From: Candidatus Heimdallarchaeota archaeon | GTDB lineage: Archaea > Asgardarchaeota > Heimdallarchaeia > JABLTI01 | Assembly (NCBI GenBank): GCA_019058275.1 | Contig: JAHLVW010000078.1 | Span: 1 to 45,490 of the forward strand | DNA length: 45,490 nt | Direction of reading: 5' to 3' | In this document: positions 28,336 through 39,232 of the stretch, one piece after another | How positions within the stretch are numbered: position 1 is the stretch's first letter | Layout of the letters: the number at the start of each line of letters is the position of its first letter | Translations under genes and position numbers: made by a program | Notes under the pieces: model-generated | The model's database searches: none | Seen by the model: only the letters and a program-made list of their open reading frames with translations | What the model was told of the DNA's origin: nothing

Positions 28336-28371
28336 GGGTGTGTGGTAAAGCCTGGATAGGCTCTTTTAGTT
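28336..28371 (+). repeat. tRNA-Arg 5'-half fragment (positions ~1-25) plus shared tail, copy A
   Basis: GGGTGTG-TG-GTAAAGCCTGGATAGGC-TCTTTTAGTT; 31/36 identical to 29886-29921. GGGTGTG pairs with the CACACCC of the 3' fragments. Confidence 0.8.
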
Positions 28372-28502
28372 TTTAGCATTCGTTTATCGTTCTGTCTTTT
28401 TCTTCTTTTTTCCGCTCTTCTTGTTCCTTCTTTTCTTTAACCGTTGTTTCTCCTGCTTAAGAAGTATTATTTTTTAGCTCTTTTGGGTGTGTTTTTCCGG
28501 TT

Positions 28503-28536
28503 CTCTTCTTAATCCTTTTTCGCGTCTTAAGAAGAG
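28503..28536. terminator. 10-bp hairpin downstream of the LVIVD gene
   Basis: CTCTTCTTAA-N14-TTAAGAAGAG. Confidence 0.5.
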
Positions 28537-28542
28537 TTTTTT

Positions 28543-29769
28543 TCAACTCTTTTTCTTTTTCCTCACAATTAGTATAGAACCCACAATTACAATCGGCAAT
28601 CCAATACCAATTACCAATCCAAAATTCCGTCCTAAAGAGTTCTCAACGTACGAGTAGATTCTGATACTACTGGGAAAGGTTAAGTACATGTAATTATTTG
28701 CTACTGTTATTTGACTAAGATTTTGGTCTCCGACCTTTAACCGTGCCATCCTTTTCAGTTTTTGTGGTTTGCTGATGTCGAAAACATAGAGTTCATTTCC
28801 ACCAGCGAATACTCTGTCTCCTACAATCTCCATATCCTGAATATTCCCTTCAATATAGAGTTGCCAGTTTGGAAAGCTGTAATCCCCACAGATAGTTGGT
28901 TGAGTAGGATCTGTGCAGTCATAGACTTGTATCCCAGCGTCCCGAAAAGCACTTATGACGTAGTTCCCGTACACTCCACTCCTAACTGAAAACCCTTTCG
29001 TACTCTCTACTGCTCCCAGAAACACAGGATTCACAGGATCAGCTAAACTATAGATTGTTACGCCATTAGACACCAGGTACAAGTAATCATTCTCGACATG
29101 TACATCTCCCAGATCATTCTCGACATGTACATCTCCCAGAGATGACGGATAACTCCCCACTCTCACAGGTAACGTCCGATTACTGCAATCGAAGATTAGT
29201 AATTCCCAAGAGCTCACATATGTATAATTTTTGTATATACCTATTCGATCTGTTCTGTTCACTCTATAATATCTTATGCTTTCCGGAGTTGAACTTCCTA
29301 TTCGAACTGGATTTGTTGGGTCAGTAATGTCAAGAAGTGCTACTGAACCCCACTGACCAATAATGTACCATAACTCTGTCAGCATGTACGCTATGTTCTC
29401 CCTGATTTTGAAATCTAACAGATATTCATAAACCCCTAATTCATAACTTCCAACAACAACAGGATTCTCTGGTTGGTGTACATCAATTATCTGTATTATG
29501 TTCGAATAGCCCTCTCCTTCCGTGTAATTTATCAAACTGACATAAAGTAAATCGTCCTGGATACATAAAACTGTGCCAGGCTCACCTTCGTTTATTAAAA
29601 TAGAATTTACTTCGTCAACGATGAAAAATCCATCACCCATAATAGTGGCATTATACATTAAAACGAAAAGAAAGAGAGAAGAAATAAATAGCAACTTAAG
29701 CAGTGTGCTGATTGAATCCCTTCTTCCTTTGCATCTTTTTTCATTTCTTTTCAAAACTCCCATCACCAC
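28543..29769 (-). CDS. LVIVD-repeat membrane-anchored protein (cassette cargo)
   Basis: Repeated units IQIIDVHQPENP, ALLDITDPTNP, VTIYSLADPVNP and IQVYDCTDPTQP; N- and C-terminal TM segments. Confidence 0.88.
   Translation of the reverse strand: MVMGVLKRNEKRCKGRRDSISTLLKLLFISSLFLFVLMYNATIMGDGFFIVDEVNSILINEGEPGTVLCIQDDLLYVSLINYTEGEGYSNIIQIIDVHQPENPVVVGSYELGVYEYLLDFKIRENIAYMLTELWYIIGQWGSVALLDITDPTNPVRIGSSTPESIRYYRVNRTDRIGIYKNYTYVSSWELLIFDCSNRTLPVRVGSYPSSLGDVHVENDLGDVHVENDYLYLVSNGVTIYSLADPVNPVFLGAVESTKGFSVRSGVYGNYVISAFRDAGIQVYDCTDPTQPTICGDYSFPNWQLYIEGNIQDMEIVGDRVFAGGNELYVFDISKPQKLKRMARLKVGDQNLSQITVANNYMYLTFPSSIRIYSYVENSLGRNFGLVIGIGLPIVIVGSILIVRKKKKS
29086..29139. repeat. Perfect 27-bp in-frame tandem duplication
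   Basis: ATCATTCTCGACATGTACATCTCCCAG x2, encoding LGDVHVEND twice. Confidence 0.95.
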
Positions 29770-29885
29770 AAGTAACCTAATAATATAATATATGACCTTT
29801 ATCTTATTCTATTTTTCCATTTTATTTTTTAACTAAAACCTATAGTTTTATAAATTCTTTACTTGGAATTAAAAATCAGACCTTT

Positions 29886-29921
29886 GGGTGTGTAGTAAAG
29901 TCCGGACATGCTCTTTTAGTT
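29886..29921 (+). repeat. tRNA-Arg 5'-half fragment plus shared tail, copy B
   Basis: GGGTGTG-TA-GTAAAGTCCGGACATGC-TCTTTTAGTT; compare the intact tRNA-Arg 5' end GGGTACG-TA-GTATAGCTTGGATAATGC. Confidence 0.8.
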
Positions 29922-29957
29922 ATTCTTATCCTTTTCTCTTCTCTTTTCCTTCAAACC

Positions 29958-30093
29958 AGTCTTCAAGACTCTTCTTTTACTTTTTGATAGCTTCTTATCG
30001 ACTTGATGACTGACTTTTTGGTTTTTTTTACTCATTTTTCTTTCAGTCATCAAGTTTTCAAGAGATGCTTCTTCGTTCTCTTCCTTGAAGACT
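29958..30093. repeat. Nested inverted repeats (long stem-loop)
   Basis: AGTCTTCAAG (29958-67) pairs with CTTGAAGACT (30084-93) and encloses ACTTGATGACTGA (30001-13) paired with TCAGTCATCAAGT (30043-55). Confidence 0.8.
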
Positions 30094-30164
30094 TATTGAC
30101 TTAACAGCCCAATTTTTCTTTCATTTTCTGATGTAAAGGCATTTTATCTTGATGAAGTTATTGT

Positions 30165-37428: not shown

Positions 37429-37517
37429 AATAGATTTACTTCATAAATCAACTTTTCATTTATTATTAATGTTTCTGAAATAAATCTCGAAACTGTTCTC
37501 TTAATAATATTAGTAAA

Positions 37518-37539
37518 TCGAATCCGTCCACACCTGCCA
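37518..37539 (+). repeat. tRNA 3'-half fragment, copy 4
   Basis: TCGAAT CCGTC CACACCT G CCA. Confidence 0.85.
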
Positions 37540-37541
37540 TT

Positions 37542-38434
37542 TTAATTTTCCATTTTCAGTCCTTTTTTCTGATGTCGTATTTGTCTTTCTATCTTCTCTT
37601 TTTGTTGGTCTGTTAGTTTTCCCTTTTCTTTCATTCGATTTATTTCTTTCATTGCATTTCCCTCTACTCCTTCAATCATCATTAATGTAAAGGCCATTTC
37701 AAACTTTATTCCTTCATTTTTCTCGAGAATCATCGCTTTATCAAGATTAGGGATAACACTTCTTACATACTTCTTCCTCATTCTTCTTAATGCTTTGATA
37801 CCCCTTAGGCGAATTTCGATATCTTCCTCCTCGAGTAGTTCTAATATCGCTTGAATGTATTCTTTATTGCTTCTTGCTTGTAATAATCGATAAAACATAT
37901 TTAATTTCTTTATTTCCTTTAATTTGATAACTTGAATTAAATGATTTGTTGTTAAAATATTCAATAAATTCTTGTATAACGTTCTATAAATTTCATCATA
38001 TTACATAGCTATTAGAAAATTCAAAAAAACAATTGGGATTTCGTCTGTTTCTTGCAAAATCAAATCTAAAGTCTGAATTGTTTTGTTAACGATATACGCT
38101 CGTTATTTTTTAATTCATTCAGTAAAAATGGAATAACCTCTTCTGCTTGTTTTCCCATCCTACCAAATGTTCCAATTATTGCTGTACGAACCCAAATATT
38201 TCTTTCTTTTTGTAAGGCTTTTACTAATTTTGGTACACTTTTACTTCCTATCATTCCTAGCGCTCTTATTATAAAACATTTTTGATTGAAATCATCTGTG
38301 GTATTCAATGTAGACTCAAGAGCAGGCAATGCAGGTTTGCTTATTTTTCCCAAAGCCCATATTACACTCTCTCTTGCTTTTTCATCTTCTAAAGCTTTAA
38401 TTAATTCGGAAATTCTATCCTCTTCAGAACTCAT
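37542..38434 (-). pseudogene. HEAT-repeat (PBS-lyase-like) protein pseudogene
   Basis: Two HEAT-like ORFs (ALGKI, RALGMIG, VRTAIIGTFG; IRLRGIKAL) joined by a frameshift near 38095 and an in-frame TAA near 38002. Confidence 0.75.
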
Positions 38435-38479
38435 AAAATCCCTAGTGTTTTTCTACTTTCAAAGCGTTTTAATTTTTAT

Positions 38480-38513
38480 GGAAATGGACGATTCAAATTA
38501 CCCCGCATCCGCA
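38480..38513 (+). repeat. tRNA 3'-half fragment, copy 5 (degenerate)
   Basis: GGAAATG GACGA TTCAAAT TACCC CGCATCC G CA. Confidence 0.6.
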
Positions 38514-38536
38514 TTCATTTCTATTCTTTAATTATG

Positions 38537-39094
38537 TTAATAGTATATATTATCAGTTACAACTTTTCCATTATCTGAAAATTTTATTCCTTCTAACTCC
38601 AATAGTGCACGTTTCATAGTAAGACCGCCTTGAAATCCACCAAGTTCACCATTGGTTCTAATTGCCCTGTGACAAGGATTGAAGATGGGGAATGGGTTCT
38701 TAGCTAATGAGTTTCCAACTACTCTCGCTCCATTGATTATTCCTATCTGATTTGCAATTCGTTTATAGGTGCTAATCCACCCTCTTGGAATATTGTACTC
38801 AGCTAAAAGTACTCTCTTTTGTATTTCAGAACATCTACTAAAATCTAGTAATTTTAGATCAAATTTTATATCTTCTCCATTAAGAAATTGCTGGATTTTT
38901 TTACCAAGATTGTTAATCACTAGAGATGATTTTGGTTTCATTTGATCGAAAGATTCCCACGCTTTAGCTTCAGACTTTAATTTATGCTCACTAAGGAATA
39001 AACGCTGTATTTGTACATTTGAATCAACTTCTTTCCAGACAATAGTAAAATAATCAAATGTAGATGGAAACGTGGCATATAATGTTAAAGACAT
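38537..39094 (-). CDS. ogt: Methylated-DNA--protein-cysteine methyltransferase
   Basis: Motifs IPRGWISTY, ARVVG, NPFPIFNPCHRAI and GGFQGG..MKRALLELEG. Confidence 0.93.
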   Translation of the reverse strand: MSLTLYATFPSTFDYFTIVWKEVDSNVQIQRLFLSEHKLKSEAKAWESFDQMKPKSSLVINNLGKKIQQFLNGEDIKFDLKLLDFSRCSEIQKRVLLAEYNIPRGWISTYKRIANQIGIINGARVVGNSLAKNPFPIFNPCHRAIRTNGELGGFQGGLTMKRALLELEGIKFSDNGKVVTDNIYY

Positions 39095-39174
39095 AGTTTT
39101 TCACTATAGTTAATAAATATAAGATTTTTCTAAAAATCAACCCCATCAGCAAAAAACATTAATGCCAAATCTTT

Positions 39175-39232
39175 TGTGGTAAAGCAACCTGCGAATTGGA
39201 AGATTGACGATTTTAATCTCCCACATCCACCA
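39175..39232 (+). pseudogene. Degenerate tRNA-Arg(GCG) relic, copy 6 (5' piece, anticodon loop and 3' half)
   Basis: TGTGGTAAAGC (matches 28341-28351), then AAC CT GCG AA TTGG AAGATT GACGA TTTTAAT CTCC CACATCC A CCA. Confidence 0.65.

Follow-up and report, generated by a model that had tools for sequence, protein, structure and literature searches.

At tRNA-Arg(GCG) in an Asgard archaeon, we found a locus that is, at roughly even odds, a two-sided gene-capture hotspot, built by tandem accretion of miniature integrase-less units that entered by crossover at conserved gene ends. The window, i.e. the whole stretch of DNA analyzed, comprises 45,490 nucleotides of contig JAHLVW010000078.1 (C73) from a Heimdallarchaeia MAG; an initial annotation had been made from the sequence alone, without knowledge of the host. 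The assembly is 93% complete, and the same locus is present at 99.94% identity on JAHLVY010000001.1, a 2.26-Mb contig of a second assembly, possibly from the same sample. The following features were mapped:

28276..28358, +, scar 1: tRNA promoter region (TATA-like box at -42) and the first ~23 nt of A-type tRNA-Arg(GCG)
28362..28542, +, left end of unit 1, matching the stretch behind the 5' piece of L068 at 87% over 151 nt
28543..29769, -, unit 1 cargo: 408-aa LVIVD-repeat protein (Pfam LVIVD, 1.7e-15)
29826..29911, +, scar 2: tRNA promoter and the first ~23-25 nt of the A-type tRNA
29912..30150, +, left end of unit 2, 70-76% identical to L070 934-1123 and 10326-10437 (Cas1-like unit)
30165..31031, -, 288-aa HEPN-like gene (weak Pfam HEPN; PADLOC PDC-S19, 2.9e-8; RxxxxH motif)
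31088..31186, -, structured ~100-nt non-coding unit of the Cas1-like module (z -4.5)
31186..31350, -, 54-aa AbrB/SpoVT-like small gene (from its translation; family judged by eye)
31416..33173, +, 585-aa protein with two restriction-like (PD-(D/E)XK) nuclease domains (AlphaFold pLDDT 87)
33176..33284, -, working tRNA-Arg(GCG), B allele, with a 31-nt intron at 33215-33245 (Rfam, 43.5 bits)
33341..33379, +, 3' piece 1, 39 nt (nhmmer, 1.1e-6)
33388..33444, +, shared 57-nt leader: AT-rich, ribosome site, start codon (89% to 34413-34468)
33439..34356, +, cassette: 305-aa gene, RxxxxH motif, 25% GC
34370..34392, +, 3' piece 2, weak, T arm deleted
34413..35308, +, leader and cassette: 281-aa 8xMP membrane protein (Pfam 8xMP, 5.6e-10)
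35329..35366, +, 3' piece 3, near-perfect A allele
35632..37428, both strands, cassette: 134-aa (+) and 461-aa (-) genes, no assigned function
37518..37539, +, 3' piece 4, 22 nt
37542..38434, -, cassette: two small HEAT-repeat genes
38480..38512, +, 3' piece 5, weak, worn
38537..39094, -, cassette: O6-methylguanine methyltransferase, MGMT (Pfam, 1.9e-24)
39175..39232, +, 3' piece 6 with an anticodon relic

The clearest evidence for this reading comes from comparison of close strains, which confirmed that cassettes are gained and lost at the tRNA pieces between near-identical genomes (G004, L068, and sequencing runs X5 and X6, the runs being compared as assembled contigs only). A contig of run X5 is ~99% identical to 29371-35371, continues with 6635 other bases, and resumes at 39223, which amounts to a swap of 3.85 kb here for 6.6 kb there. 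Both ends of the swap are located at pieces and neither at the working tRNA: the left breakpoint (35371) falls at 3' piece 3, and the genes of 35632..37428 are replaced. G004 and X6 also rejoin at 39220, and the right breakpoint in three relatives is thus at 39220-39223, at 3' piece 6. In G004, the flank proteins are 97-100% identical, and other cassettes lie between its three pieces. The 3' pieces are therefore exchange points. Strain differences could also come from allele replacement between conserved flanks, and no empty sites were seen within one sample in the assembled contigs of the runs.

The eight pieces reported initially were all recovered within a few bases, on the + strand and in gaps between genes, and comparison with the genes of relatives upheld tRNA-Arg(GCG) as their source. 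When scored with A-type tRNA-Arg(GCG) genes from relatives only, against 8434 real intergenic 80-mers, only six pieces are clear (28336, 29886, 33341, 35329, 37518, and 39187; each score matched by 0-2 of the 8434). The two others, at 34370 (matched by 33) and 38480 (matched by 12), are weak candidates, whose assignment rests on their position. The pieces are confined to this contig and do not represent a genome-wide interspersed repeat, a possibility that the initial annotation had raised against itself. Its suggestion that the outermost right-hand copies are the most decayed does not hold, as decay does not increase steadily outward: the third right-hand copy is the best preserved (35334, 32/33), and the inner 3' copies at 33341 and 34370 are worn. 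One gene per interval is the rule in four of the six cassette intervals, the other two holding two genes each, and the centre contains three genes plus the tRNA.

This centre is thus not empty. ARAGORN without introns detected no tRNA in the window; its intron option and Rfam recovered a working tRNA on the opposite strand. A single symmetric system is not supported either, since the arms differ: the scars on the left retain promoters and stem from larger units that are linked to a Cas1-like module. The encoded CCA of the B gene is 2 nt from the stop of the nuclease gene, and 3' piece 1, which occurs as the same variant in G004, G006, and G009, lies 56 nt from the B gene start, head to head. 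The B gene is the only Arg(GCG) gene found in the assembly and is only 57-60/78 identical to the A allele, the source of the + strand pieces. In relatives, the locus has an intact + strand A allele followed by 3' pieces; in the present lineage, nothing but pieces is left of the A gene, and the intact gene is the inverted B allele beside the nuclease gene. L068 shows the order 5' scar, cargo, nuclease, truncated B, new promoter, and intact A. G006 has the block in inverted form, and G008 and G010 carry a similar block in differing orientations, which complicates the order in which allele B was placed. The alleles of the pieces look imported.

Each 5' piece still has an old tRNA promoter and breaks off at the D-loop; these pieces are the scars of larger units, which brought a new promoter and tRNA front. 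The junction of scar 1, beside the same flanking gene, is also found in L068, where an unrelated 308-aa gene occupies the position of the unit 1 cargo, and the 60 nt upstream of scar 2 match the intact A gene's promoter in G007 at 56/60 positions. A pattern search of metagenomes for the 5' junction gave no match. An origin of the 5' pieces by deletion into the tRNA intron was dropped, because L068 and L070 share the foreign end at the junction. In L070, a full 9.6-kb Cas1-like module is located between two 5' scars, and the layout of scar, module, inverted tRNA, and 3' piece is repeated at tRNA-Arg(TCT) on contig C48.

The 585-aa gene is a remnant of such a divergent-Cas1/Cas4/LAGLIDADG-HTH module, which is complete in L069 and L070. 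Its AlphaFold model matches the Can2 nuclease domain (Z 13.0) and XisH (Z 10.0), and the genome has five paralogs. A role as recombinase was rejected, as the protein has two nuclease domains and no recombinase fold is among the listed matches, in which its N-terminal half is barely covered. Only the partner gene, the RNA motif (the 31088-31186 unit, 88-91% in L069, L070, and G010), and the left end of the module remain in the window; the Cas1-family integrase, present in full modules of relatives and on C48, has been deleted. Compared with aCas1 elements, the module shows weak Cas1 profile matches and TnpB/RAMP neighbors.

The cargo itself is diverse. The 305-aa gene is missing at the locus in G004 and skipped in run X6, and a 27% homologue lies between 23S pieces on C38. 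The 281-aa 8xMP protein has a counterpart in G004 that is only 47% identical, though the flanks are 97-100% identical, and the methyltransferase gene is at the locus in G003 and G007 and absent in G004. The 57-nt leader recurs twice in G004, in worn form at ~35424, and at C98:112645 inside the 23S array. Homologues of two cassette genes elsewhere are mostly without flanking pieces. The description of the locus as a defence island was not clearly supported: among about eleven genes, defence-type content comprises one PDC-S19 match, two genes with the RxxxxH (HEPN) motif, and one 8xMP gene, the others being LVIVD, HEAT, MGMT, and unassigned genes.

Over the genome as a whole, tRNA pieces number ~40, and the 23S rRNA 3' end is present in ~52 copies (1 in a shuffle). 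About ten tRNAs, the 23S end, the 16S end, and one protein-gene end are used as targets; other tRNAs have their own local piece arrays, and 23S serves as a target with its 3' end alone. Most tRNA pieces start just before the T stem (30-37 nt), with left edges that vary from 13 to 40 nt at tRNA-Arg(GCG) and from 28 to 107 nt at 23S. In 41 units, the CCA is followed by a T-rich tract, the resident T-loop is missing from all ten Pro pieces, and the 23S pieces carry recurring, intermixed allele variants, all of which suggests that the units carry their own gene end. Reverse-transcribed copies were ruled out, since a long piece on C107 retains its intron.

In the mechanism that we propose, each mobile unit would bring along a copy of one target-gene end and enter by a single crossover with a resident copy. 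For small units (a T-rich tract or leader, one or two genes, and a tRNA 3' copy), the entry point would be the tRNA or any of the earlier 3' pieces. Larger units, with a promoter and tRNA front at their end, would come in close to the D-loop, and the old promoter and first 21-25 nt would stay behind. Unit 2 would be what a deletion left of a Cas1-like module that also had allele B at its end, and the A gene would thereby have become dispensable. The catalyst would act in trans. Rather than one dedicated integrase, we favor homology-driven recombination by the host at the conserved gene end, perhaps with priming by module nucleases. A generic process is indicated because about ten tRNAs as well as rRNA and protein-gene ends are used, left edges vary, 5' junctions fall at the D-loop, and no tyrosine recombinase was found beside a piece. 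Against this, the pieces, at 22-40 nt and with mismatches, offer little length for homologous recombination.

As initially reported, no tyrosine or serine recombinase gene is present on this contig, and none of the six tyrosine recombinases of the genome was found beside a piece. A site-specific recombinase acting in trans is possible; one fixed-site enzyme is disfavored, given the varying edges and many unrelated targets. An SSV-type split integrase was rejected, as a catalytic half is missing nearby and the K/R-rich open frames that extend into the 5' pieces mirror T/C-rich DNA. It is unlikely, yet deserves serious weight, that tyrosine integrases of viruses or islands insert at the T arm, that the elements shrink to integrase-less CIMEs, and that later integrases add or excise at old att sites. 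This route is established for tRNA islands, 159/3919 of which have 5' fragments (PMC4383910), as is CIME accretion (PMC5704250), and the six tyrosine recombinases would be at hand. T-loop introns in several module-adjacent resident tRNAs, which would break such a site, also fit this route. Moreover, the starts of pieces just 5' of the T stem, as in T-loop-class integrases, together with the sole use of the 23S 3' end, suggest site choice, which speaks against our preferred explanation. However, over ten specificities would be needed, rRNA ends included; the mapped arrays contain no integrase or remnant, many units are only 0.3-2 kb, edges are variable, and the 5' junctions lie in the D-loop, outside the crossover sites known for integrases (PMC4383910). 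Tandems of at least three occurred in only 4 cases in 2168 genomes (PMC4383910).

We consider rather improbable a genus-wide Asgard system that collects genes without a classical integrase. Its Cas1-like/LAGLIDADG/nuclease modules would cleave the ends of tRNA and rRNA genes or insert there, each with a diverged spare tRNA allele on board that is spared by the module's own targeting, and would assemble, in trans, arrays resembling CRISPR in which whole genes (>50 behind 23S rRNA) are the spacers. A little more doubtful still is the divergent Cas1 as the integrase itself, pasting gene-sized DNA at tRNA and rRNA ends and duplicating a 30-40-nt repeat, with genes as CRISPR-like spacers. It is the sole integrase-like gene found in piece-bounded units (C33, C48, L069, and L070), its E/H/D residues align with those of Cas1 in several copies, and casposases target tRNA T arms (PMC5137440). 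The Cas1 family (8/10) and multi-copy 23S pieces (9/10) occur in the same genus, but genus-level co-occurrence is one data point, and G003 (83% complete) has the array and no match to this Cas1 profile. Furthermore, terminal inverted repeats are absent (own-end scores equal cross-pair controls), casposon duplications are 15-bp resident copies whereas the pieces here vary in length and allele, and the promoters on the two sides of the 5' scars differ. An integron whose attC-like sites derive from the tRNA and whose IntI is encoded elsewhere in the genome is very improbable. Single-gene units, a shared leader, and fast turnover would fit, and integrons and CALINs are known in Asgard archaea (10.1101/2022.02.06.479319); nevertheless, the best IntI score is 38 bits (TIGR02249) against a cut-off of 265 in the 93%-complete assembly, a pattern search found no attC R''/R' box pair in ten gaps, and genes lie on both strands. 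Split tRNA genes with trans-spliced halves are hardly credible: promoters are kept on 5' pieces, but beyond one relic there is no anticodon-bearing middle piece, 5' trailers pair with 3' leaders no better than background, the pieces are worn, and an intact gene is present. The 5' pieces end near position 25, a split point known from Caldivirga.

The accretion of units at conserved gene ends bears on accessory-gene uptake and swapping in a group close to the eukaryote ancestor. About 90 gene-end copies in one genome are missed by island finders that need an integrase, and strain-level breakpoints mark orphaned tRNA pieces, not the working tRNA, as exchange points. This locus adds two-sided scars, an allele swap, and a link to the Cas1 module; as the 5' scars and the swap are tied to a putative Cas1-like module, the enzyme question is directly testable.

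Among known systems, the tRNA islands and tandem arrays of Islander (PMC4383910) share displaced 3' and 5' tRNA fragments at unit ends, tandem units, and a kept CCA end. They differ in that here there is no integrase per unit, many units are <2 kb, junctions fall at the D-loop, and rRNA ends are used too; the fragments also point the other way from the resident tRNA and belong to another allele (co-oriented and matching in G003 and G007), and three Islander filters would reject this locus. CIMEs with their accretion (PMC5704250) and the additive flexible islands of Alteromonas (PMC4898812) likewise stack integrase-less, att-bounded units at a gene end and vary between close strains, whereas here one-gene units with a shared leader, two-sided scars, a replaced tRNA gene, and dozens of 23S copies are seen; no conjugative helper was found, and edges vary. 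Asgard aCas1-TnpB elements (PMC10691335) and casposons (PMC5137440) resemble the module in having a divergent Cas1 with Cas4-like, TnpB, or Cas7-like partners at tRNA genes, the partner here being a double restriction-like nuclease next to a LAGLIDADG-HTH gene. Unlike casposons, the mapped modules show no terminal inverted repeats and no short, fixed, resident-identical target duplication; a Family B DNA polymerase (PolB) does not appear among the called genes of L069 and L070. Integrons and CALINs, including archaeal ones (10.1101/2022.02.06.479319), are also arrays of small exchangeable gene units, but here IntI and attC are lacking, gene orientation is mixed, and the sites are gene ends.

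The assembly containing contig C73, the whole of which is the window, comprises 4.12 Mb with 32% GC, and its tRNAs carry archaeal-type introns. All eight tRNA pieces of the initial annotation were confirmed at their positions and are listed here together with the intact gene that lies between them:

28336, plus strand, 5' piece of tRNA-Arg(GCG)
29886, plus strand, 5' piece
33176-33284, minus strand, intact tRNA-Arg(GCG) gene with a 31-nt intron
33341, plus strand, 3' piece
34370, plus strand, 3' piece
35329, plus strand, 3' piece
37518, plus strand, 3' piece
38480, plus strand, 3' piece
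39175-39232, plus strand, 3' piece

The pieces were scored only against A-type tRNA-Arg(GCG) genes from relatives (A being the plus-strand allele that the pieces match), with 8434 real intergenic windows as background. For six pieces, no more than two of these windows scored as well; those at 34370 and 38480 were weak. The best piece has exact matches from Candidatus Heimdallarchaeota MAGs, and a genome-wide search confirmed that tRNA-Arg(GCG) pieces are confined to the window contig. Misassembly is unlikely, since the locus is repeated at 99.94% on a 2.26-Mb contig of a second assembly, which may share the sample.

The intact gene, overlooked initially, is the sole Arg(GCG) gene found in the assembly. 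This B allele is identical to A at 57-60 of 78 positions and to the tRNA-Arg(GCG) of a sister genus at 67 of 78. Relatives G003, G007 and G010 have an intact plus-strand A gene at the same locus, followed in G003 and G007 by cassettes and 3' pieces. The two arms of the window are thus what is left of an A gene with its arrays, severed from the working tRNA. The same order of 5' scar, module, inverted working tRNA and 3' pieces derived from another allele is found at tRNA-Arg(TCT) on contig C48. In this window-like layout (C48:20221-36641, L050), ARAGORN does not detect the inverted gene, whose T loop contains a second intron. Between relatives, tRNA-containing blocks at the Arg(GCG) locus are inverted relative to their flanks (G006:C65 and G008:C37 versus G010:C11), and TnpB lies immediately before the A gene in G008 and G010.

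The proposal that cassettes are gained or lost at fragment boundaries was borne out across relatives. G004, whose flank proteins are 97-100% identical to those of the window, has three pieces separated by different genes, and its match to the window picks up again at 39220. A single 14.4-kb contig from sequencing run X5 shows 67 differences over window 29371-35371, then 6635 different bases, and window sequence again from 39223, both breakpoints falling at pieces. Run X6 skips the cassette of the 305-aa gene and also resumes at 39220; its joint lies at a repeated leader and is hence less sure. Further different cargo occupies the locus in G003, G005, G007 and extracted locus L069. The left edges of 23 pieces vary from 13 to 40 nt, a T-rich tract follows their CCA, and one 57-nt leader is common to several different genes. 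The cargo comprises two RxxxxH genes alongside 8xMP, HEAT, MGMT and unknown genes, a mixture for which "defence island" was too strong a term; GC is 25% in several of these genes, the mean being 33%. Paralogous 115-aa genes lie at 39291-39638 and 1773-2126 (50% identity, with a 99-nt inverted match at 84%), and a 2-oxoacid acyltransferase-like gene at 39725-40660 is broken in two, the G004 version being whole (315 aa).

On the left arm, both 5' pieces retain a tRNA promoter and end in the D-loop (tRNA positions 21-25). The promoter at 29886 matches the one of the intact G007 gene at 56/60 positions. Locus L068 reads old promoter and front, foreign end, cargo, nuclease gene, front-less B, new promoter and intact A; the foreign end after its 5' piece is that at window 28362 (87%). 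Locus L070 has a complete 9.6-kb module flanked by two promoter-bearing 5' scars. As the module's left end and 100-nt structured unit both match unit 2 of the left arm, unit 2 is best taken as a deletion derivative of an L070-type module. An exact 27-nt tandem duplication lies within the LVIVD gene (29086-29139). Elsewhere in the genome, tRNA-Leu(TAG) is preceded by a small 5'-type unit whose junction falls in the anticodon loop (C53:8493-9145, L051), and a solitary 5' piece of tRNA-Trp lies at C101:44650.

In the predicted fold of the 585-aa protein encoded at the centre, the front is rich in beta structure and is followed by two restriction-like nuclease domains. Structure comparison gave Z scores of 13.0 to Can2 and 10.0 to XisH, with no recombinase fold among the matches listed. 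It has five paralogs in the genome. Of 21 other loci of the family for which the sequence behind is available, 10 have a tRNA gene no more than about 200 nt from their end, though not all of these loci are independent. Such nuclease genes are usually oriented away from a gene for a 550-aa LAGLIDADG-HTH protein (Z 20.1 to PI-PfuI; about 22 copies in the genome), which elsewhere is partnered with TnpB or a RAMP pair. This gene is also accompanied by one of Cas4-like type and by a divergent Cas1 with aligned E/H/D residues. As far as profile matches go, these modules resemble the Asgard aCas1-TnpB elements (PMC10691335). At its ~22 loci the LAGLIDADG-HTH gene always faces an exchangeable partner, which is TnpB, a RAMP pair or the double nuclease, and has divergent Cas1 at its flank; the N- and C-terminal domains of its product have as yet no fold match. 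Module-adjacent tRNA genes at L121:11014, L119:4749 and L050:14685 have two or three introns, some in the T-loop; the T-loop introns share related sequence, as if moving between tRNAs or shielding target sites.

Gene-end copies extend across the genome, with roughly 40 non-gene tRNA 3' pieces (53 raw matches; 0 in the shuffle), at least ten pieces of tRNA-Pro and about five 5' scars. The 23S rRNA 3' end has about 52 copies, spaced at a median of 1.5 kb, in which allele variants are intermixed. Their right edge is fixed, whereas the left edge varies from 28 to 107 nt; 5' or middle portions of 23S have zero copies in this genome. The motif occurs in 9/10 same-genus genomes, being multi-copy in seven, and one 16S end and one protein-gene end are repeated as well. 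The 23S-end copies separate gene units from C98:102777 onward and on C35, C38, C75, C80 and C99 (L074-L079), probably forming a single array considerably longer than 100 kb. Multiple copies are also present in most of the genus and in G066, a genome from another family. The tRNA-Pro(TGG) array (C33:92773-108315, C108 and C52:64246-65741; L047-L049) has as its first unit a Cas1-like module of 14 kb that includes a DEAD helicase, and none of its at least ten pieces has the resident T-loop. The 3' end of 16S rRNA, together with spacer, recurs at C98:7295, away from the 16S gene itself, which lies on C115. Pieces of initiator-Met tRNA stand among Ile(CAT)-like ones within one array (C58:3297-3373, C59:5272-5349, L121:11133-11260), which includes one full chimeric pseudo-tRNA.

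The unit boundaries, turnover, promoter scars, allele swap and module remnant are established. Each unit would import its own copy of the gene end and enter through a single crossover, with catalysis in trans. Entry driven by homology, to which we assign a probability of about 0.5, is favoured by the number of unrelated targets, the variability of the edges, the imported alleles and the position of junctions in the D-loop. Since most pieces begin at the T arm, visiting tyrosine integrases are a less likely alternative. The genome encodes six tyrosine and two serine recombinases. None of these is on the window contig, consistent with the initial description of no local integrase, and no tyrosine recombinase, of the kind anticipated next to fragments elsewhere, was found beside a piece. 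A search for terminal inverted repeats found none. The Cas1-like protein is the most interesting candidate enzyme and a less probable one still. Beside these alternatives, homology-driven entry is our preferred reading.

The two-sided scars, the allele swap at two loci and the strain breakpoints at pieces other than the working tRNA are new, and our literature search found no account of such arrays in Asgard archaea. The locus is similar in working to an integron, yet is not one; IntI and attC, sought in view of the suggested integron-like system, were both not found. Among known systems, it comes closest to CIMEs and to the accretion of tRNA islands in tandem (PMC4383910, PMC5704250, PMC4898812), from which the window array differs in unit size, in being without integrases, in its orphaned and inverted sites, and in the use of rRNA ends as well.
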